Source: a virus
Taxonomy: Duplodnaviria > Heunggongvirae > Uroviricota > Caudoviricetes
DNA: 40,878 nucleotides
IMG/VR virus record: IMGVR_UViG_2541047787_000006
Span: 1-40,878 of that record
Reading direction: 5' to 3' (one strand)
In this document: positions 5,637-35,681 of the stretch, one piece after another
Layout of the letters: each line of letters begins with the position of its first letter
Numbering within the stretch: position 1 is the first letter of the stretch
The notes under the pieces: model-generated
Seen by the model: the letters and a program-made list of their open reading frames with translations, nothing else
What the model was told of the DNA's origin: nothing
Database searches by the model: none
Translations under genes and position numbers: made by a program

Positions 5637-5651
5637 TTACCTTTCAGGTGA
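5637..5651. promoter_or_regulatory. Operator-like palindrome TTACCTTTCAGGTGA
   Basis: Matches the TTACC-N5-GGTAA family found in the immunity region; an extra TTACC half-site lies at 5587-5591. Confidence 0.45.
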
Positions 5652-5690: not shown

Positions 5691-5706
5691 CTGTATAAAT
5701 ATACAG
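5691..5706. promoter_or_regulatory. LexA (SOS) box CTGTATAAATATACAG
   Basis: Perfect CTGT-N8-ACAG dyad with AT-rich spacer, flanked as TACTGTATAAATATACAGTT, about 20 bp upstream of the 5728 start codon and next to a TTGATA hexamer. Confidence 0.6.
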
Positions 5707-5727: not shown

Positions 5728-5985
5728 ATGCAGCAGTATCACTATCCACTGGAAGACGGATTTACCGAAAGGATTCACACGCCGGGAGGCGTCAGGTCAC
5801 TGGTGGAGGGATCGCACTTGATGAAATTACTCCGGGATCTCGATAAGGATGGATTTAATGTCGATGGCCCACTTGCCGAACTGACTGCACTGATTAACTA
5901 CGTCACCAGCTCACAGATGTCTATGCAGGATCTGCAAACACATCTCGACTATTGTGCCGAACAATTACGAAAACAAACCCGGTAA
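5728..5985 (+). CDS. Small protein homologous to the C-terminal domain of the antirepressor at 7373-8029; candidate SOS-induced antirepressor
   Basis: GGAGA RBS 7 nt upstream; product IHTPGGVRSLVEGSHLMKLL..DLQTH aligns with [25 protein letters not shown] of the 7373 protein; the ORF track start at 5710 is TTG without an RBS. Confidence 0.5.
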   Translation: MQQYHYPLEDGFTERIHTPGGVRSLVEGSHLMKLLRDLDKDGFNVDGPLAELTALINYVTSSQMSMQDLQTHLDYCAEQLRKQTR

Positions 5986-6009: not shown

Positions 6010-6516
6010 TTAACAGTCGTAAAATTCCGGGTCCCACAAACTTGCATCGCGCGGCATGGATTCTAAATTTTTCAGCCGCAAAATTCTGTCACACTCGACA
6101 AGAAGTTTTTGTTTTTGTTCGTCAATTTCTACTTTTTTGTGTGCTGGCTCATCCCAGTAATCCAGAAGAAACGCATGTCGCTCAGACGTTACAAGATAAA
6201 TCACATACACATCACTGGTTGGTATTTTTTTATGCTTGTTGGTGGCCTTGTCTTTCTTCCCGGATGCCCAGTTTTTCCAGCATTGTTCCGTACCGCTCTC
6301 ACCAAACTTGTCAGTATAGTTTCCGATGTTTACGTGAACGTGGCGTATGTGATATTCCAGCATCTCTTTCGGTGGATCCCGAAACAGAGTGTCCTTTCCG
6401 AAATCCTTATGATGACCGTAGCGCCAGTGATCTATGAACGCGTTTTTGATAGGTATTAGCTCAGGGTCCTTCCCAAAAATTCCAGGGTGAACCAACCCCT
6501 GGAATTTATTCAGCAT
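6010..6516 (-). CDS. YafO-like toxin-domain protein (putative mRNA interferase-type toxin), module 1
   Basis: Motifs FGKD..F.DP, RHVHVN, IPTSD, VIYLVT and EPAHK resemble the YafO family as recalled from memory; paralogous to 8331-8876; start ATG at 6516 overlaps the upstream stop (ATGCTGAATAA). Confidence 0.45.
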   Translation of the reverse strand: MLNKFQGLVHPGIFGKDPELIPIKNAFIDHWRYGHHKDFGKDTLFRDPPKEMLEYHIRHVHVNIGNYTDKFGESGTEQCWKNWASGKKDKATNKHKKIPTSDVYVIYLVTSERHAFLLDYWDEPAHKKVEIDEQKQKLLVECDRILRLKNLESMPRDASLWDPEFYDC

Positions 6517-6925
6517 CGTCGTAGAGCTCCTGAGCCATATCTTCGGCAGTGCGTGCAAACATCCTGCGCGAGATTGCATGAGATTTCTCGACGGACATCT
6601 TTGGGACCTCATGCATAACATTTTTGGGAGTTGTGTAATAGCCTATTACAATTTTCACACCTGACTTATGATTAATATCAGCATAATATACTTCTTGTTC
6701 AGACGTTTCACGACGAACATAATCTGCCAGTTTTCCACATTTAAATTCCCCTCCCTGATGTTTTAAAATCTCCTCAACTGCACTATTTTCAGTGAAATAC
6801 CGAATAAGAAATTTCTGTCCAGTCTCTTCAGCATGAGGTATAACAGTATTATTGGAAGCCCGAACAATGGCCTTACTCAATATTTCATGGTCTTTATTTT
6901 TTTCTGATTTCCTCAAATGCTGCAT
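6506..6925 (-). CDS. Upstream partner of toxin-like gene (candidate antitoxin or immunity protein), no recognisable family
   Basis: 139 aa from the ATG at 6925; overlaps the downstream start by 11 nt; C-terminal tail KMSVEKSHAISRRMFARTAEDMAQELYDDAE resembles the tail of the 8177 small ORF. Confidence 0.4.
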   Translation of the reverse strand: MQHLRKSEKNKDHEILSKAIVRASNNTVIPHAEETGQKFLIRYFTENSAVEEILKHQGGEFKCGKLADYVRRETSEQEVYYADINHKSGVKIVIGYYTTPKNVMHEVPKMSVEKSHAISRRMFARTAEDMAQELYDDAE

Positions 6926-6961
6926 TACTGTAGCTCTCTTCGTGTTCACGGGCACCCCCAA

Positions 6962-6976
6962 CTACCTCTAGGGTAA
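6962..6976. promoter_or_regulatory. Operator-like palindrome CTACCTCTAGGGTAA upstream of module 1
   Basis: TTACC-N5-GGTAA family member about 40 bp upstream of the 6925 start on the minus strand; TTGCCA and TAGAAT hexamers immediately upstream on that strand. Confidence 0.45.
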
Positions 6977-7057: not shown

Positions 7058-7101
7058 TTGAAATAACGTGAGTTATGCATTTATTATTACCTTTGCGGTA
7101 A
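7058..7101 (+). promoter_or_regulatory. Sigma70-like promoter (TTGAAA-N17-TTATTA) with overlapping operator TTACCTTTGCGGTAA at 7087-7101
   Basis: Hexamers read directly; perfect TTACC-N5-GGTAA dyad at the predicted transcription start. Confidence 0.5.
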
Positions 7102-7192
7102 ATTTACATCGCACTCCTCTTGTGCCATAGTAATCGGGCACTGGCAAAATCCAGTGCCGGGATTGGTCTCCCGGATTACTAAGTGGCGCATA

Positions 7193-7214
7193 CCACGCCA
7201 GACGTGGTTTTTTT
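7193..7214 (+). terminator. Rho-independent terminator inside the antirepressor leader
   Basis: Stem CCACG / CGTGG, loop CCAGA, followed by seven T; about 120 nt downstream of the 7058 promoter and 160 nt upstream of the 7373 start. Confidence 0.55.
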
Positions 7215-7372: not shown

Positions 7373-8029
7373 ATGAACGCTCAACTCATCCCCGTATTCA
7401 ACGGCACTATATCTAACGAAACAGCCCTACTTTGTAATGCCCGCGATCTGCACGCTTTTTTAGGTGTTAAAAAGGTGTTTGCAGCATGGATTACAAATCG
7501 CATATCAGAATACGAATTCATTGAAAATCAAGACTATATTTTGCTTTCCAATTTGGGAAAGCAAACATCTGGTAGAGGCGGCCACAACCGCAAAGAGTAC
7601 CACCTTACCCTTGATACAGCCAAAGAGCTGGCGATGGTCGAGCGTAACGAAAAAGGTCGCCAGGTGCGACGCTACTTCATTGAATGCGAGAAACGTTTAA
7701 GACAACAAGAAACAAAAGTGGAGAAGGTCTTGTCAGGCTTCATGCCCGCCATTATGGAGGCGATCAAGCTGGAAGACAAAAAAGAATACAGTGCCCCGCT
7801 GAAGCCCGGCTACCGCAGCCTGATTCATTCTCCGTCTGGTGTTCTCGGCCTGACGGAAAACTCACTGCTGATGAATCTGCTGAACCAGTTACAGGAAGAC
7901 GGGCACGACGTATCGGGCGCGGCGGCGGAGCTGACCACCATGTTCTGCTACATCGTCGGTGTGAGCAAATGCCTGCGTGATATCCAGACCCACGCGGAGT
8001 ACATCAACGACAAGGCTGGGTTCTTCTGA
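7373..8029 (+). CDS. Antirepressor, AntA/AntB-type N-terminal domain plus C-terminal domain shared with the 5728 protein
   Basis: N-terminal [34 protein letters not shown] matches the AntA antirepressor pattern; GGAG RBS at 7361. Confidence 0.7.
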
Positions 8030-8073: not shown

Positions 8074-8116
8074 TTGCAGACTGTGGGTGAATAGCGTACT
8101 ATTACCTCAAGGGTAA
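8074..8116 (+). promoter_or_regulatory. Sigma70-like promoter (TTGCAG-N17-TACTAT) with overlapping operator TTACCTCAAGGGTAA at 8102-8116
   Basis: Same promoter-operator architecture as at 7058 and 35639. Confidence 0.45.
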
Positions 8117-8176: not shown

Positions 8177-8356
8177 ATGCGAAACGAAAAATTGCAGATG
8201 CGTAGAGCGCAAGCTGCCGCAAGACGTTCTTTCAATGGAAGCGTAGAGTACGTAAAAGTTACTATGACAAAAGATCACGCAAGTCGCGTATCCAGCGCTT
8301 TCTTTGATTCTCGTAACAATAAGGAAAATTATGAGTTCGTCTGCGTCGCAGAATGA
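8177..8356 (+). CDS. Small 59-aa protein overlapping the start of toxin-like gene (candidate antitoxin), module 2
   Basis: Not in the ORF track (under 60 aa); GAGG RBS at 8166-8169, ATG at 8177; overlaps the 8331 gene by 26 nt; tail KVTMTKDHASRVSSAFF...VAE resembles the C-terminus of the 6506-6925 product. Confidence 0.35.
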   Translation: MRNEKLQMRRAQAAARRSFNGSVEYVKVTMTKDHASRVSSAFFDSRNNKENYEFVCVAE

Positions 8357-8876
8357 TAAAAATCAAATTGTCAGATATAAGGGTCGAGTATTGCATACGC
8401 AAAATTTCTCGGCCCTTTGTGCATCTGATCTTGAGCTGAAGAAAGTATCTGATGCCTTTGCCCAGTATTGGAAAACGGGATACCATCCATCTCTTGGTAA
8501 AGATGCTGCATTTGCTCGTCCGACAGAAATGCTTAAACTAAATGTCAGGCATACTCATGTCGATAACCAAGACTATATTCCAGAAGATAGTGATAAAAAA
8601 CACACTGGTAAAAAATCATCTTGGGATGCATGGAAAAATATAGCGTCTGTACAAGTAAAATGCATACCAACAAGTGATTGCTTTTTAGTTTATTCGGTAA
8701 ATCACAATCGTGATGCGCTGGTTATGTTTTTTGTTGACGCAGATGCTCACAACATAACTGAGCAAGAAGAGTTTAAAGAGGCAGCAATCACTATCAGTTA
8801 TCAATTCTTTGAGAAAACAAAAACAGAACCAATGCCTTTAGAAGAAGATCTTTTTTCTGATAAATGGAAGGAATAG
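8331..8876 (+). CDS. YafO-like toxin-domain protein, module 2 (paralog of 6010-6516)
   Basis: AAGGA RBS 5 nt upstream of the ATG at 8331; shares W.TGYH, LGKD..F.RP.EML, RHTHVD, IPTSD, LVYSV and DAHN motifs with the 6010 product. Confidence 0.45.
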   Translation: MSSSASQNDKNQIVRYKGRVLHTQNFSALCASDLELKKVSDAFAQYWKTGYHPSLGKDAAFARPTEMLKLNVRHTHVDNQDYIPEDSDKKHTGKKSSWDAWKNIASVQVKCIPTSDCFLVYSVNHNRDALVMFFVDADAHNITEQEEFKEAAITISYQFFEKTKTEPMPLEEDLFSDKWKE

Positions 8877-9166: not shown

Positions 9167-9727
9167 CTACATTGATATATGATTCATAAAGTAGCTTAAA
9201 GATTTACTTCCCAGAAAAGAAATTTCTTTTCCTGGATATGTCGCAATAATTGAGCATGACTTATCCCCGTTAGAGGTAACAAATCCTGAATAACCTACTT
9301 GTTCTTTACCATTTTGTTGCTTGGCTAAAAAGTAGAGGTAGCTTATCTTTTTGCCCTCTGGGTAAAACTCTGCCAAACCAGTATCGGTGATTGAATATTT
9401 TATTCTCCCGCCTTGAGTAACGTTTTCCATCTCAAGTTTAGCTATGTCTTTTCTGTTGTATTCAGCATTGATTTTCCTTTCGAAATCAATATTGTTTTCA
9501 AATGAGTAGGAAGCAACAGTCTGAATAGATGGGAACACGTTTATCTGGATGCCTCCACAGTCGGCACAGGTATAAAGGTATGAATCAGATGGAATCCCCA
9601 TAAAAGAAAACTGAGTTACCTTAAATTTATCGCTATCTCCAAAGTATTGAAGTTCGCATTTAACATTTTGCCCTGCAAAAGAAAATGCAGACATCAATAT
9701 TGAAACAAAAAATATAATTGCCTTCAT
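9167..9727 (-). CDS. Secreted or periplasmic protein of unknown function (moron)
   Basis: Signal peptide MKAIIFFVSILMSAFSFA; 4 Cys; markedly AT-rich gene between core-protein gene and cargo island. Confidence 0.55.
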   Translation of the reverse strand: MKAIIFFVSILMSAFSFAGQNVKCELQYFGDSDKFKVTQFSFMGIPSDSYLYTCADCGGIQINVFPSIQTVASYSFENNIDFERKINAEYNRKDIAKLEMENVTQGGRIKYSITDTGLAEFYPEGKKISYLYFLAKQQNGKEQVGYSGFVTSNGDKSCSIIATYPGKEISFLGSKSLSYFMNHISM

Positions 9728-17638: not shown

Positions 17639-20109
17639 CAGAATCCCCCAACAGTAAGACGAGGAATAACGGCAAGAACAGACAGCGGCAACGGATCGAG
17701 CTGACGGATTTTTACACGTCCGTTTTTGCCCCAGTTACTGTCCAGTTTCACTTCTACTTTTCCGGTAGCGTCATCAACAGGATCATCGTAGAACTCGAAT
17801 TCACGCTGTGGATATTCGTACCATTTACCGCCGGGCGTAGTCGCCCAGATGCCGCGACTGGCATTCACAACAAGAGTAACGGACGGGATCACCTGTTTTT
17901 TGTCCAGCAGCGTTTCCTGTCCGTTAATGTTGATATCCAGTGTTTCGAATTCAGCAGTTATTGGCAGGCCGATGTGCACAACAGCCCCAGGTGATTCCAG
18001 CGTGACGGCACCTCCGGAAACCACTTTCTGTGGTTCCACGTTCGCATCAGAGAGAATGTTTACGGTCTGGCCTTCAAGATGAGACAGGCCTCCAAATGTC
18101 CGGCGCGCCATCTGCCAGTACGTGGTGGCCACATTCCTGAGGGATGGCGGGACGTTCCTGTTAGCACGAACCACTACAGCGGTATTGCTGGTTACAGAAA
18201 TAATGTCGCAACGTAATTCTTTTGACACTTCATCGCCAGTATCAGGATCAGTTCCGGTATAAGGGAACTGTAGTTGCGCGCCGACATCACTACTGGTGAA
18301 GTACGCACCACCAGAAACACTGATTGTATATTCCGCACGGTAATCCCATTCACCAGAACCACCAGTGATGGTCATCGTTCTGTCAGACGTATTTCTTCCA
18401 TCATAGCTAAGGCCAGAATCAACAAAGAAAGCATCTTCATCGCTGGTAAATAAACGGCTGGACAGCCTCTCGATGTATCTCACTGTTTGCCCGTTAACGG
18501 TTCGGTTAACGACGAAATACACCGCATCTTCATTGCCTTCGCTGATACTGCATGTGCTTTCATATTTTCCGGTACTGGATTGTGGTGCCCATGCAAAAAC
18601 CTGCTGATCACGCAAATAGGTCATCACCAGTAATTTACCGTCATCACGAATGCAGAAGGCGCTGGAGTAAGGGACAATAGAGAAGCACCAGTCAACAATG
18701 CTGTGCTTCTGAAAAAGATGATTGGCAAGGATGGTCAGGTCGTTCCCCTGATAGCCGTCAACATCGAATGAGTAGGCCAGATCACGGACAACGCTGCCTT
18801 TCTCCTGGACGAACAGAGCAATATTCGCCACAGCAATTGGTGGGACGTTGCTTGAGCCATTTGATCCCTGAGAGCTGAATGCAAATGATGATGGGGTTAA
18901 CACTTTGTTCTGGTCGCCGGTGATGACGTACTCACCTCCGGAAGTCAGCGCCACCAGAGAACCAACATCAATCAGGTGACGGATCTCATTAACCTGACGC
19001 CCGGCATAGGTGTAGATAATTCTGTCGTCATCCTGCGTAGGATTGCTTTTGCCAAAATCCTTATAATCCCCGGTACGGCTGGCCCAGATAGTCTGAGGGA
19101 ACGCAGTCGATGCGGCGAAGTAAAGACGTTGTTGATAATAAACAACAGTGCCAGGATAACCATTAACACTGTTCCAGGCATATTTAGCCCATTTATAGCT
19201 GGCATTATCCTCGCCCACGACCTGCGAAGGGATATAGGAAATCACCTCGGCAGTTGCAGTAGTTCCATTTGCAGCAGTGATACGGGCAATGCCAAAACCA
19301 CTGTGCAGATATTCCCACTCAATGCCAGTATCATCATCACCGGATCCGCCCCAACCATCCCATGATGTGCCTTCTGTATGCGAAGGGCGCAAAGTACCTG
19401 TTTTGCCTGCTGTAACGGCGCGATAGTAGTTACTGTCTGCACGGCGAATATCGCCAATCGACGTACTCTTACTGGTTTCCCATACCGGCACAGAATCCAC
19501 TGCAGGCTGTTCCAGATAGAACAATTTGCCTGCCTGCTCCGCGCCAAAAATAGAGGCGCTTGCCGTTAACGTAATTGTCCCGGTGCTGGCGCTGGCATAA
19601 ACCGTCACTGACTCATCAATATTGATATCTTCAAATGGCCCGTTCTTCGTTACCACATCAACCAGTTGCCAGTTGTCATGCGCATAGCGGCGCAGCTCTT
19701 TCGGCGGGTATGCCGGGTGAACCAGCGTAAGCACGTCGGCGCTTTGCGTGAATTTAATTCGGAACAGATCGGCTTCAGTATATGGCGTGGCAATTTCATA
19801 AATAACATTGCTGCTGTTCAGCACCAACGCACCATCTTTGATAACGCGCATGTACTGGTGTCCGAACTCCAGAGCATAGGTCTGAACCGTCGAGAACTGG
19901 AACGGGATCAGGCGGCATTTCCGATTTGGGTATTTGGCGGCACCGACAAAACGCGTACCAGGTCGATTCTCAACGCCGCCATACTGCCGCACGATAAAGT
20001 TATCGCACTTGCGCAATGCCACCTGGTACTTCGCCATGTCGATACGACCGTACAACGACGGTCCAATCTCGCCACCGGCAAAGCTGGGCTGGATCCAACT
20101 GATAGCCAT
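17638..20109 (-). CDS. Tail tubular protein B (nozzle), T7 gp12-like
   Basis: 823 aa; N-terminal pattern ISWIQPSFAGGEIGP resembles the gp12 N-terminus; follows tubular protein A. Confidence 0.55.
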   Translation of the reverse strand: MAISWIQPSFAGGEIGPSLYGRIDMAKYQVALRKCDNFIVRQYGGVENRPGTRFVGAAKYPNRKCRLIPFQFSTVQTYALEFGHQYMRVIKDGALVLNSSNVIYEIATPYTEADLFRIKFTQSADVLTLVHPAYPPKELRRYAHDNWQLVDVVTKNGPFEDINIDESVTVYASASTGTITLTASASIFGAEQAGKLFYLEQPAVDSVPVWETSKSTSIGDIRRADSNYYRAVTAGKTGTLRPSHTEGTSWDGWGGSGDDDTGIEWEYLHSGFGIARITAANGTTATAEVISYIPSQVVGEDNASYKWAKYAWNSVNGYPGTVVYYQQRLYFAASTAFPQTIWASRTGDYKDFGKSNPTQDDDRIIYTYAGRQVNEIRHLIDVGSLVALTSGGEYVITGDQNKVLTPSSFAFSSQGSNGSSNVPPIAVANIALFVQEKGSVVRDLAYSFDVDGYQGNDLTILANHLFQKHSIVDWCFSIVPYSSAFCIRDDGKLLVMTYLRDQQVFAWAPQSSTGKYESTCSISEGNEDAVYFVVNRTVNGQTVRYIERLSSRLFTSDEDAFFVDSGLSYDGRNTSDRTMTITGGSGEWDYRAEYTISVSGGAYFTSSDVGAQLQFPYTGTDPDTGDEVSKELRCDIISVTSNTAVVVRANRNVPPSLRNVATTYWQMARRTFGGLSHLEGQTVNILSDANVEPQKVVSGGAVTLESPGAVVHIGLPITAEFETLDININGQETLLDKKQVIPSVTLVVNASRGIWATTPGGKWYEYPQREFEFYDDPVDDATGKVEVKLDSNWGKNGRVKIRQLDPLPLSVLAVIPRLTVGGF

Positions 20110-25904: not shown

Positions 25905-25919
25905 ATTACCTTTCAGGTA
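25905..25919. promoter_or_regulatory. Operator palindrome TTACCTTTCAGGTAA, with TTGACA hexamer at 25883-25888
   Basis: Perfect TTACC-N5-GGTAA dyad; nearly identical to the site at 5637. Confidence 0.45.
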
Positions 25920-26242
25920 AGCAAAGAGTTCATTCCGGTTATTAACCTGACTGGCTTGTCGTTAAATTGAACAGGTGGAGTGAGCTTTTATTTTGAGCAG
26001 TACGGCGTATGGCACATGCGCCGATAGCGGTCTGGATACGTTTAAGGGGCACCCTCCCTTGCTCGAGCAAACGAACCAGGTAGCCGGAATGTGCAAGTCG
26101 AGCGGTTTTATTCCGCGCACGGGGATTCACCATCCCGGCGATTCGGTGTGACGCCTCGGAAGAGACGAGGGTGCAACGATGAGAGCATTTATGGAGCCGC
26201 GACAAAGTGTGGCGCCTTAACAGGCTAAGTGCTCTCAGCGTT

Positions 26243-26319
26243 GTGGCATTAGCTCAGTTGGACAGAGCAACCGCCTTCTAAGCGGTTGGTCGCAGGTTCG
26301 AATCCTGCATGCCACGCCA
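26243..26319 (+). tRNA. tRNA-Arg, anticodon UCU
   Basis: Cloverleaf read by hand: acceptor GTGGCAT/ATGCCAC, D-arm GCTC..GAGC, anticodon stem ACCGC/GCGGT with loop CTTCTAA, T-arm GCAGG-TTCGAAT-CCTGC, discriminator G and CCA. Confidence 0.85.
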
Positions 26320-26362
26320 GAATCACGCCTAAGGACCGTGATGCCAGAAGTTCCAGGGGCTT

Positions 26363-26404
26363 GGCGGTGATGGTTTCCCTTGAAGGACTATCACCGCCCT
26401 TTTT
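26363..26404 (+). terminator. Rho-independent terminator downstream of the tRNA
   Basis: Stem GGCGGTGAT / ATCACCGCC followed by CTTTTT. Confidence 0.55.
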
Positions 26405-26482
26405 ACAGCAGGACGCCATTGCGATGACTTCATGCTGTAAACCAGTACAGCCACGGAAGGCATAACTCATTGCTTCCAGTTC

Positions 26483-26506
26483 GCCCGGTTCGCCGGGCAT
26501 TTTTTT
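26483..26506 (+). terminator. Second rho-independent terminator
   Basis: Stem GCCCGG / CCGGGC followed by seven T. Confidence 0.6.
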
Positions 26507-28460: not shown

Positions 28461-29089
28461 TGATTACCATCCTGACGTTCTTTGAGTCGCTTCCTGGCTG
28501 CTGCTATGCGATCAGCAATTGTCACATTCACATTAACATCCAGGCGTTCTTTGAATGCGTTGACGTCGACGTGCTTACCAATCAGTTCGAGGTTTTTCAC
28601 CTTGTCGGGCCATTTCACCTTCTTCAGGATATGCTCGACATCCTCAACAGAGAGATCCGCCTCGCCATTCTCTTTTTGCAGAGAGGCCTGAGTCGTCTTG
28701 ATAGTAGCGATATCCATCGCGCTGAGAGAGGTGCGCCATACCTTAGGCCACTCAGCGATCGGCTTCATCCCGCCGTCGTCGTTCAAGATATCCAGGACAT
28801 CCATCTGGTCGATCTCTACCAGGCGCATGAGGACGTAATCAGCGCTGACGCGCATTCGTTTGTTGCGCTCCTCCATCAACTCGGCAATCCGTTTTTGAAT
28901 GCGTTCATCGCGCATCATGACACTGGCTTTAACTGCCGCTGTATTTGGGGAGAATCCTGCGTTAATCGCTGCCTGAGTCTGGTTTTCAGGCGTTTTGATG
29001 TATGACTGGCAATAAGCCTCCTGCATTGCTGTTAGTGGCTTAAATTGCGTTGATTTGCGTTTATAGGTTTTAGGTTCAGCAGGCATCAT
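28457..29089 (-). CDS. Terminase small subunit
   Basis: N-terminal HTH-like region TAMQEAYCQSYIK...AAINAGFSPNTAAVKAS typical of small terminases; start chosen at the internal ATG with a GGTGG RBS rather than the ORF track start at 29185. Confidence 0.65.
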   Translation of the reverse strand: MMPAEPKTYKRKSTQFKPLTAMQEAYCQSYIKTPENQTQAAINAGFSPNTAAVKASVMMRDERIQKRIAELMEERNKRMRVSADYVLMRLVEIDQMDVLDILNDDGGMKPIAEWPKVWRTSLSAMDIATIKTTQASLQKENGEADLSVEDVEHILKKVKWPDKVKNLELIGKHVDVNAFKERLDVNVNVTIADRIAAARKRLKERQDGNQ

Positions 29090-29095
29090 AACCAC

Positions 29096-29128
29096 CGTGG
29101 TAATAGTTACCGTTGTGGTAATAGTACC
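29096..29128. repeat. Tandem direct repeat GTGGTAATAG(T)TACC x2 immediately upstream of the small terminase gene
   Basis: Two adjacent copies, each an everted GGTAA-N3-TTACC arrangement. Confidence 0.5.
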
Positions 29129-29132
29129 ATGC

Positions 29133-29158
29133 AAAATAAAGCCGCCATAGTTGGCGGC
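29133..29158 (-). terminator. Minus-strand rho-independent terminator separating the small-gene block from the late operon
   Basis: On the minus strand: stem GCCGCCA / TGGCGGC followed by TTTATTTT. Confidence 0.5.
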
Positions 29159-29206
29159 AGTATTCAAAACCATCAAATTCATCATGCATAATCTACTCGT
29201 GACATG

Positions 29207-29548
29207 TCACACTATTAATTTCGTTTCATGCCAGCCTTTAGTCACCCAGCATTGCGAGTCACCATTACACGGGCATGAATTAACTGGAACTCTCTCGCCG
29301 CACTTACCGCAACATTTTCTGCTGATCGATTTTATACGCCCGCGCACGCGTGCATCATCCTGGCGGATCAGTAACGCTATATACTCACCAAATTCGTAAG
29401 GCGCACGCCCGGGGCGACGCGTGGCACAGTTACTCTCCAGCATTTCAATTTCCTGAGCATCAAGCACAATTTCCAGCTTACGCACACCAGATGCAGCTTG
29501 TCTGGCTCTCTGAGCGGCTTTGCGCTCTGCTGCTGATTTAGCCATCAA
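29207..29548 (-). CDS. Hypothetical protein with basic helical N-terminus and Cys-rich (zinc-binding-like) C-terminus
   Basis: C-terminal CCGKCG...CPCNGDSQC cluster; last gene before the late-operon terminator. Confidence 0.45.
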   Translation of the reverse strand: MMAKSAAERKAAQRARQAASGVRKLEIVLDAQEIEMLESNCATRRPGRAPYEFGEYIALLIRQDDARVRGRIKSISRKCCGKCGERVPVNSCPCNGDSQCWVTKGWHETKLIV

Positions 29549-32496: not shown

Positions 32497-32561
32497 GATT
32501 TACCCCTGAGGTAATTAAAAACCACATAAGACATGAAATCAATAGATTTTAGAATATTTTA

Positions 32562-32576
32562 TTACCAAACAGGTAA
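32562..32576. promoter_or_regulatory. Operator palindrome TTACCAAACAGGTAA
   Basis: Perfect TTACC-N5-GGTAA dyad in the gap between the P-like and DUF1064 genes. Confidence 0.45.
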
Positions 32577-34507: not shown

Positions 34508-34522
34508 TTACCTTTGAGGTGC
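34508..34522. promoter_or_regulatory. Operator-like site TTACCTTTGAGGTGC
   Basis: TTACC-N5-GGTGc between the cro terminator and the zinc-ribbon gene. Confidence 0.4.
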
Positions 34523-34844: not shown

Positions 34845-34907
34845 TCACCTATAAGGTAACAAAAATCAAGGATAGTTACCTATGGGGTGCATTTACCTGT
34901 TGGGTAA
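34845..34907. promoter_or_regulatory. Immunity-region operator cluster: TCACCTATAAGGTAA (34845-34859), TTACCTATGGGGTGC (34876-34890), TTACCTGTTGGGTAA (34893-34907)
   Basis: Three copies of the TTACC-N5-GGTAA dyad within the 154-bp gap between the cro-like and repressor-like genes. Confidence 0.6.
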
Positions 34908-34962: not shown

Positions 34963-35547
34963 ATGAAAAGTATCCAGGACGTCCGCAGGCAAAATCTCAA
35001 CGACTTGATCGACCGTGAATTCAATGGTGTTCAGACGCGGATGGCAGAAAAACTTGGAACTCAGGCAAATCTGGTAAACCGCTGGGCTCTTGGCAAGAAG
35101 GTTATCGGCGACCAGGTTGCGCGAAAAATTGAAGCTGCCGCAAATAAACCCCGTAACTGGCTTGATATCGATCGCTCGCTTTCTCAGGAGGGTTTTCAGC
35201 CTGTCGGCCCAAGCGACATTGGTCAGCTGGCGGCTCACAACCTGGAACGCTGGATGAGCGAAAGCCGCGACCTTTCAACTCAGGGAAAACTTCACCGCGC
35301 ATCCGGCGTCGCCCAGGTGACAATCAGCCGCCTGTTAAACAATGAGGTCAGCGTTTCCATTTCCACCCTGGAGAATGTTGCATCCGCATTCGGGCGTCAC
35401 GGCTATGAATTACTGATTCACCCGCACGACCCTGCGACTATCAACTATGATCGCTCGCGCTACGCATTGTTACCCGAAACCGAGAAAGCAAAGATCGAAA
35501 GTTACATTGAATTTGTCATCAACCAGAACGAAAAAAACAAACAATAA
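34963..35547 (+). CDS. Prophage repressor candidate with two HTH motifs and no peptidase domain
   Basis: Two HTH-like segments (QANLVNRWALGKK and GVAQVTISRLLNNE); no recognisable S24-type cleavage module; divergent from cro. Confidence 0.55.
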   Translation: MKSIQDVRRQNLNDLIDREFNGVQTRMAEKLGTQANLVNRWALGKKVIGDQVARKIEAAANKPRNWLDIDRSLSQEGFQPVGPSDIGQLAAHNLERWMSESRDLSTQGKLHRASGVAQVTISRLLNNEVSVSISTLENVASAFGRHGYELLIHPHDPATINYDRSRYALLPETEKAKIESYIEFVINQNEKNKQ

Positions 35548-35569
35548 AACTATAGTTTTCAGCAAGTAA

Positions 35570-35591
35570 GCCGCCTCATGGCGGCTTTTTT
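35570..35591 (+). terminator. Rho-independent terminator after the repressor gene
   Basis: Stem GCCGCC / GGCGGC, loop TCAT, followed by TTTTTT. Confidence 0.6.
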
Positions 35592-35604
35592 ATTGCCTGT
35601 TAGA

Positions 35605-35626
35605 TTACCCGCCGGGTAATTTTTTT
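35605..35626 (+). promoter_or_regulatory. Perfect operator dyad TTACCCGCCGGGTAA followed by a T-run (operator and/or second terminator)
   Basis: TTACC-N5-GGTAA at 35605-35619 then seven T; dual reading possible. Confidence 0.45.
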
Positions 35627-35638
35627 AACTCATATCTA

Positions 35639-35681
35639 TTGACATCAAACCAGATACGCATAATTATTACCTCAACGGTAA
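35639..35681 (+). promoter_or_regulatory. Early rightward promoter (TTGACA-N16-TAATTA) with overlapping operator TTACCTCAACGGTAA at 35667-35681
   Basis: Consensus -35 hexamer, AT-rich -10, operator at the predicted transcription start. Confidence 0.55.

Follow-up and report, generated by a model that had tools for sequence, protein, structure and literature searches.

TTACC-N5-GGTAA dyads mark almost every transcription unit of a phiV10/epsilon15-like prophage and are likely operators of its Rep repressor

Our analysis of a 40,878-nt stretch of prophage DNA (hereafter the window, meaning the whole stretch) revealed that a single palindromic element, TTACC-N5-GGTAA, marks nearly all of its transcription units, namely the cro/replication, PL-like, DUF1064, terS, portal/head and tail-fibre units as well as three accessory cassettes. 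We consider it likely that these dyads are the operators of Rep, the product of the gene at 34963-35547 and a member of the SPC32H/epsilon15 Rep family. An earlier note on this DNA had proposed that many promoters of the prophage are controlled by a single DNA-binding protein, with the repressor as the simplest candidate, and this proposal is supported as far as computation reaches. The early, replication-side, antirepressor and toxin promoters that it placed under this control do carry dyads, but its list was incomplete and must be extended to terS, portal and DUF1064.

The window is a phiV10/epsilon15-like (Uetakevirus) prophage. Its immunity region is 97-98% identical to that of Escherichia phage phiV10 and its relatives (genus Uetakevirus) and was found in 563 of 5426 complete E. 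coli genomes (~10%). Host DNA and the lysis genes occupy the left end of the sequence and the start of the integrase gene its right end, in inverted orientation relative to the phiV10 record, and the prophage adjoins guaA in the one genome whose flanks were examined.

We enumerated all 5-mer inverted repeats of the window with spacers of 0 to 10, and TTACC with a spacer of 5 was the leading dyad by a wide margin. The exact dyad is present nine times against 0.02 expected in dinucleotide-preserving shuffles, and 14 copies are found when at most one mismatch is allowed (0.68 expected); zero shuffles equalled either count. The claim that the dyad is far more abundant than chance is thus borne out. 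It had also been described as almost always intergenic, and this holds as well: with a gene map built from the ORF list and annotated related records, and assuming an epsilon15-like terS start (29086) rather than a phiV10-style start that would place both terS dyads in the first codons, the dyad centre is non-coding for all nine exact copies and for 13 of the 14 copies with at most one mismatch (binomial P of 1e-10 and 6e-14, respectively, with 7.9% of the window non-coding). The remaining match, at 9351, is probably a chance hit, because about one such hit is expected at one-mismatch stringency. The 15.6 kb of adjacent host DNA contain zero exact matches. The dyads are listed below without strand.

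5637 to 5651: ant/tail-fibre dyad, one mismatch; in the divergent ant/tail-fibre control region
6962 to 6976: one mismatch; leftward promoter 7008-6979 drives phrog_9503 and YafO-like module A
7087 to 7101: exact; promoter 7058-7087 drives an isrK-like RNA, a C4 RNA and AntA
8102 to 8116: exact; sits at TTGCAG-17-TACTAT (8074-8102) and is followed by phrog_6685 and YafO-like module B
9351 to 9365: one mismatch; within a coding region
25906 to 25920: portal-operon dyad, exact; upstream of the gp3-like and portal (head) operon
29089 to 29121: terS dyads, 18 bp apart (29089 with one mismatch, 29107 exact); upstream of terS
32500 to 32514: downstream dyad of the DUF1064 pair, exact; abuts a TTGATT-17-TTTAAT element and overlaps the DUF1064 ribosome-binding site
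32562 to 32576: upstream dyad of the DUF1064 pair, exact; precedes the DUF1064 gene
34508 to 34522: weak dyad, two mismatches; flanked by the cro terminator on one side and by the gp42-like and replication genes on the other
34845 to 34859: O1, TCACCTATAAGGTAA, one mismatch; in the spacer of a leftward cro-like promoter match
34876 to 34890: O2, TTACCTATGGGGTGC, two mismatches
34893 to 34907: O3, exact; overlaps a conserved TTTACC-17-TTAAAT element
35605 to 35619: upstream dyad of the PL-like pair, exact; spaced by 62 bp from the downstream one
35667 to 35681: downstream dyad of the PL-like pair, exact; starts on the last -10 base of promoter 35639-35667

This list largely confirms the positions proposed earlier and refines several of them. 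The copies at 7087, 8102, 32562, 34893, 35605 and 35667 are exact, and so is the one given as 25905, although its true position is 25906. Those at 5637, 6962 and 34845 are present but carry one mismatch each, and those at 34508 and 34876 carry two (both read TTACC-N5-GGTGC). Consequently, all three dyads described between the cro-like and repressor-like genes do exist, but only O3 is exact. Both weak dyads are backed by better copies at the equivalent position in related phages: one-mismatch copies stand at the position of 34508 in phiV10, Tyrion and BUCT711, and epsilon15, SPC32H and BUCT711 each have an exact dyad where O2 stands. The dyads at 29107 and 32500 (both exact) and at 29089 and 9351 (one mismatch each) were absent from the earlier list. 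Outside the window, close to its right end, a further one-mismatch dyad, ATACCTTTAAGGTAA, stands upstream of the integrase gene, and it is kept in phiV10, epsilon15, Tyrion, SPC32H and BUCT711.

Two of these sites present additional local features. The dyad at 35605 possesses a GC-rich spacer (CGCCG) followed by a T run, and the scan scored 35602-35622 as terminator-like; this segment lies just past the rep terminator (35568-35587), and its GC-rich spacer is not kept in phiV10. At terS, a start chosen after the phiV10 annotation makes both dyads intragenic (window 29084-29185), and the in-frame start equivalent to that of epsilon15 (29086) lies directly 3' of the second dyad, whose GGTGGT could act as a ribosome-binding site.

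The dyads frequently overlap promoter-like elements. In five dyads of the window, the first base is also the last of a -10-like hexamer, and another three dyads are located in a promoter spacer or just past a -10, with promoter calls here being consensus matches that are no more numerous in these regions than in shuffled sequence. In the promoter scan, the last base of the -10 hexamer is also the opening T of the dyad at 7087 (TTGAAA-18-TATTAT) and 35667 (TTGACA-17-AATTAT), each with 10 of 12 consensus positions, and the same junction was recognized by eye at 8102 (TTGCAG-17-TACTAT), at 32500 (TTGATT-17-TTTAAT) and at 29107 (TGgTACTAT, extended -10-like). Of the three sigma70-like promoters at which the dyad had been reported to sit on the -10/+1, those starting at 7058 and 35639 are therefore recovered by the scan, but the one at 8074 matches only 8 of 12 positions and falls under the scan threshold. 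Among the other three sites, O1 is located within the cro-like promoter match (minus strand, 34862-34834, TTGTTA-17-TATTAT, from the scan), the dyad at 6962 follows the -10 of the leftward promoter match 7008-6979 at a distance of 3 bp, and a leftward tail-fibre promoter-like element (TTGCAA-16/17-TATCTA, by eye) has the dyad at 5637 in its spacer. The TTTACC-17-TTAAAT element at O3 could be the rep promoter, an assignment made by eye only. No convincing -10 was found adjacent to the dyad at 25906, and the promoter-like element of terS has no -35. Finally, the dyads of each pair (35605/35667 and 32562/32500) bracket a promoter, and the two regions share the sequence 'atctaTTGA' around the -35.

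The placement of dyads before late operons (terS, portal and tail fibre), which usually need an activator, raises the possibility that the sites are read by a host transcription factor or by another phage regulator, such as the gp55-like regulator (29207-29548), the PerC-like activator or the AlpA-like protein, for instance as activator sites of late genes. A terS promoter without a -35 and a motif common to phages from four host genera would both fit such a reader. Nevertheless, the motif is also found at the early promoters and in the rep-cro interval, in the classical tripartite position, an overlap with the -10/+1 is the position of a repressor rather than that of an activator, and the 15.6 kb of adjacent host DNA are devoid of exact copies; we therefore regard this explanation as very unlikely.

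We compared the window to five complete relatives, phiV10, Tyrion, BUCT711, epsilon15 and SPC32H, which together represent four repressor classes. The identity of their Rep proteins to Rep of the window is as follows.

phiV10: 100%
Tyrion: 78%
BUCT711: 44%
epsilon15: 43%
SPC32H: 43%

TTACC-N5-GGTAA is the top dyad in each of the five relatives, with 8 to 11 exact copies apiece, and its copies stand at equivalent locations, as listed here.

Before terS, a pair 18 bp apart: window, phiV10, epsilon15 and Tyrion; a single copy in SPC32H and no copy found in BUCT711
Before the portal operon, one dyad: six of six genomes
Divergent ant/tail-fibre region, one dyad: six of six genomes
Between rep and cro, three dyads: six of six genomes, the third copy being degenerate in some
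Before the PL-like operon, a pair 62 bp apart: six of six genomes (63 bp in BUCT711)
After the replication genes, a pair 62 bp apart: six of six genomes
Past the cro terminator, the weak dyad: window, phiV10, Tyrion and BUCT711
Before the lysis genes, one dyad: phiV10, epsilon15, Tyrion and SPC32H; absent from the window
Before int, one dyad: five genomes; just outside the window

The O1 position in particular is occupied by a dyad in all six genomes. In the 62-bp pairs, the centre-to-centre length is kept and the intervening sequence has diverged.

Part of this family was already known. The GenBank record of epsilon15 (NC_004775.2) annotates seven dyads as protein_bind features labelled 'repressor / lysogeny', which may be predictions, and all seven contain TTACC-N5-GGTAA and read (A)TTACC-N5-GGTAAT. 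These annotated sites include counterparts of one terS copy, of the portal site at 25906 and of the site at 5637 (19895-19911 in epsilon15). Both the dyad family and its attribution to the repressor are thus on record for epsilon15. Beyond this, our search of the literature on the epsilon15 motif and Uetakevirus operators returned nothing useful but a study of phage ZX5, which defines no operators (PMC9782041).

Across the six genomes, the half-sites are invariant and the spacers and flanks vary, a pattern that would be expected of a DNA site recognized by a protein. The palindrome might instead act as RNA, by forming a 5' hairpin or by sequestering a ribosome-binding site. Indeed, many dyads are located at or just past the +1 and would hence be transcribed, those at 32500 and 29089 overlap a Shine-Dalgarno-like sequence, and 35602-35622 is terminator-like. 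However, both arms are invariant in ~55 exact sites from six genomes and show no compensatory changes, which is the signature of recognition by a protein; the 5-bp A/T-rich stems are weak, and the upstream partners at 35605 and 32562 as well as the dyads in promoter spacers are outside the regulated transcript. A role as RNA is accordingly hardly credible.

The composition of the 5-bp spacer, taken from the exact dyads of the six genomes, differs markedly between phages (percentage of GC).

window: 44%
Tyrion: 40%
phiV10: 33%
epsilon15: 15%
SPC32H: 12%
BUCT711: 4%

The values follow the repressor class, with 33-44% in the phiV10/Tyrion class, 12-15% in epsilon15 and SPC32H and 4% in BUCT711. 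The difference is significant by Fisher's exact test for the window against epsilon15 (P of 0.0015) and for Tyrion against BUCT711 (P of 7e-5), with P values that make the case look stronger than it is, given that sites at equivalent positions are not independent. The flanking A...T is near-universal in the epsilon15 class only. These observations suggest that immunity specificity, if there is any, would reside outside the core half-site.

The candidate reader of the dyads, its antirepressor and a second regulator of the immunity region are encoded as follows.

34963 to 35547, plus strand: Rep, candidate master repressor, 194 aa; full-length match to SPC32H Rep (5D50_A)
5728 to 5985, plus strand: Ant, SPC32H-type small antirepressor, 85 aa; match to 5D50_E
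5691 to 5706, no strand: LexA box CTGTATAAATATACAG, perfect; 22 bp before the ant start codon
34578 to 34808, minus strand: Cro-like HTH protein, 76 aa; phrog_35, transcriptional repressor

Residues 1-190 of Rep align to SPC32H Rep (5D50_A, E of 4e-42) and residues 89-190 align to its C-terminal fragment (5D4Z, E of 4e-20), with conserved columns spread over the N-terminal, middle and C-terminal regions. SPC32H Rep has been described, in secondary accounts, to bind palindromic sites as a tetramer that is disassembled by Ant (PMC9638917; PMC9986798). It comprises an N-terminal DNA-binding domain, a middle HTH-like dimerisation domain and a C-terminal domain for tetramerisation and Ant binding (PMC9986798), and the DNA mechanism of this type of tetrameric repressor has been called not extensively characterised (PMC9986798). 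For the repressor class of the window, operator binding as a tetramer and release by Ant are predictions drawn from SPC32H. The Pfam HTH_3 match of Rep (residues 106-147) falls in the dimerisation domain and not in the DNA-reading one, as indicated by the domain order of SPC32H. The earlier designation of the reader as a tandem-HTH repressor therefore points to the likely protein and is structurally fair, but it is mechanistically misleading, since DNA binding is assigned N-terminally (PMC9986798). For Rep, Pfam returned only HTH-type families, with no Peptidase_S24 domain of the kind associated with RecA-dependent autocleavage.

Additional support for Rep comes from phage ZX5, whose repressor is identical to Rep of the window: its overexpression abolishes free phage and reduces lysis-gene transcripts by >99.9% (PMC9782041). 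Moreover, the Rep helix NLVNRW is invariant across the four repressor classes despite overall identities of 43-78%, and this invariance fits that of the core half-site.

It is also conceivable that the Cro-like protein is the main reader of the dispersed dyads, shutting off the early and accessory promoters in lytic growth, and that Rep acts only in the immunity region. The Cro-like protein is more conserved than Rep across repressor classes (59-86% against 43-78%) and its putative recognition helix is invariant (AGTTSHYIQ and HLT are invariant), which fits an unchanging core motif. Judged from sequence, it would be an equally good candidate for sharing these sites, and at least O1, O2 and O3 are probably recognized by it. 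We looked for a motif shift accompanying the diverged repressors, but the core is identical in all four classes and only the composition of the spacer is class-dependent; therefore, this covariation test cannot separate Rep from the Cro-like protein. Other evidence argues against Cro as the main reader: the epsilon15 record attributes the sites to the repressor, the tetrameric architecture of Rep suits paired sites, and overexpression of Rep by itself is sufficient for the loss of lysis-gene transcripts in ZX5 (PMC9782041). Since Cro and repressor share operators in known switches, a Cro role would be more of an addition than an alternative, and we judge it unlikely as a replacement for Rep.

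With Rep as the reader, the regulation of the prophage can be pictured as follows. The centres of the half-sites are 10 bp apart, or one helical turn, and at this spacing each dyad would fit one pair of N-terminal HTH domains, of which a Rep tetramer would have two on offer. In the lysogen, Rep bound to the dyads would keep RNA polymerase off almost all promoters of the prophage simultaneously, so that repression would be direct and global instead of passing through a cascade of the lambda type. Induction would proceed as in SPC32H: once DNA damage has removed LexA from its box (5691-5706), the small Ant would be produced, and its binding to the C-terminal domains of Rep would break the tetramer and free all operators together. 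The alignment of Ant (window 5728-5982) with 5D50_E supports this part of the scheme (E of 4e-47 over 83 residues), and its length of 85 aa is close to that of the small Ant of the SPC32H/epsilon15 switch (~86 aa). Work by Kim and Ryu from 2013 is said to place ant of SPC32H under the control of LexA.

We tentatively put forward three linked readings that go further, which taken together remain rather doubtful. First, one Rep tetramer may clamp both dyads of a 62-bp pair (~six helical turns) and trap the promoter in a small loop; if true, this looping would explain why Rep works as an unusual tetramer. Second, the spacer might be sensed by indirect readout, through which immunity specificity, if any, would be achieved. 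Third, the accessory cassettes might occupy a Rep-controlled slot, in which case their toxin-like genes would be under lysogenic repression and not under lysogenic expression. The 62-bp pairs and the class-specific spacers offer testable leads on how SPC32H-type tetrameric repressors engage DNA.

The accessory cassettes comprise the following features.

6010 to 6961, minus strand: YafO-like module A with phrog_9503
7138 to 7214: isrK-like RNA (Hfq-binding), 67.7 bits
7239 to 7323: C4 antisense RNA, 61.2 bits
7373 to 8029: AntA (AntA-domain protein)
8177 to 8876: YafO-like module B with phrog_6685

The genes at 6010-6621 and 8304-8876 both belong to phrog_1651, the latter with a borderline match to Pfam YafO_toxin, and NCBI labels relatives of these proteins as YafO-family toxins. 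The earlier label of two toxin modules is thus a reasonable one. These paralogues reside in oppositely oriented cassettes and are preceded by unrelated partners, phrog_9503 and phrog_6685. No NCBIfam or PADLOC match was obtained for the proteins of the accessory cassettes, and their placement comes from PHROGs and the borderline Pfam YafO match alone. Between them, the isrK-like and C4 RNAs stand in tandem between promoter 7058-7087 and the AntA gene. The prophage therefore encodes two distinct antirepressor modules, the small Ant (5728-5985) and AntA (7373-8029). The antirepressor had been placed under the control of the repressor: the AntA promoter does carry a dyad, but AntA constitutes the second, accessory module, and the module of the characterised type, linked to the SOS response, is the small Ant.

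The segment 8030-8117 is homologous to other Uetakeviruses and this homology stops directly after the dyad at 8102-8116. Past this dyad, a YafO-like module is found in the window and in TL-2011b, and unrelated small ORFs are found in phiv142-3. Because homology ends after the dyad and the downstream genes differ, the promoter and operator appear to form a conserved backbone element with variable cargo. The antitoxins of toxin-antitoxin systems normally autoregulate their own promoters. Cassettes resembling toxin-antitoxin systems that are repressed in the lysogen would thus be unusual, and this counts against the explanation of the dyads as Rep operators.

Among known systems, epsilon15 is similar in presenting the same ATTACC-N5-GGTAAT core at the same places (terS, portal operon, ant/tail-fibre, PL-like and post-replication promoter). 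It differs by its Rep, which is 43% identical to that of the window, and by its spacers, those of the window being GC-richer (44% against 15%) and accompanied by weaker flanking A/T. Seven of the 11 exact sites of epsilon15 are annotated, none of these between rep and cro, and the window carries additional sites on accessory cassettes which are absent from epsilon15. The Rep-Ant switch of SPC32H (PDB 5D50, 5D4Z) is shared in most respects: full-length Rep, a similar Ant, palindromic operators, a LexA box before ant and a Rep without a RecA-type autocleavage domain. However, SPC32H belongs to another repressor class (43% identity) and lacks the isrK/C4/AntA operon of the window.

More distant systems share part of this logic. 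The primary repressor C1 of phage P1 controls many scattered operons through asymmetric 17-bp operators, and the P1 immI region is arranged as Op51-c4-icd-ant. The window resembles P1 in presenting a repressor-controlled promoter followed by a C4 antisense RNA and an antirepressor gene, but its sites are symmetric dyads and the domain organisation of C1 differs from that of Rep. The likeness to P1 is therefore one of regulatory logic and C4-ant layout, and the prophage is not a member of a C1-type operator regulon. As in the tripartite OR of lambda and P22, three sites separate the divergent rep and cro-like genes in all genomes, with O1 in the cro promoter-like match and O3 on the likely rep promoter (by eye). 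In lambda, however, only PL and PR are repressed and later genes depend on the N/Q cascade, whereas late and accessory promoters carry dyads in the window; lambda repressor undergoes RecA-stimulated cleavage, whereas Rep would be inactivated by an antirepressor. Two other comparisons were rejected. The stoperators of mycobacteriophages (L5 gp71 type) are asymmetric sites inside transcribed regions that are oriented with transcription and block elongation, in contrast to the symmetric promoter and intergenic sites of the window (zero of the nine exact sites are intragenic). The LF82 'Gally' prophage, which is P22-like and uses C2/Mnt regulators, has no bearing on the window.

Overall, the system of the window represents the phiV10 immunity class, a further member of the known epsilon15/SPC32H Rep-operator family, and no new kind of system is revealed. 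The phiV10 record is without operator annotation and our dyad map fills this gap; with ~10% of complete E. coli genomes carrying this immunity region, a correct map of the regulon is useful for annotation. The map also indicates which genes are likely silent in the lysogen, including the two YafO-like toxin modules and the second antirepressor operon. As a minor observation on the gene content, a tRNA-Arg (anticodon TCT) is located at 26243-26319, between the head and terminase operons, where it shares sequence with an 83-aa ORF on the minus strand (26249-26500); phiV10 annotates the counterpart of this ORF as a hypothetical protein.
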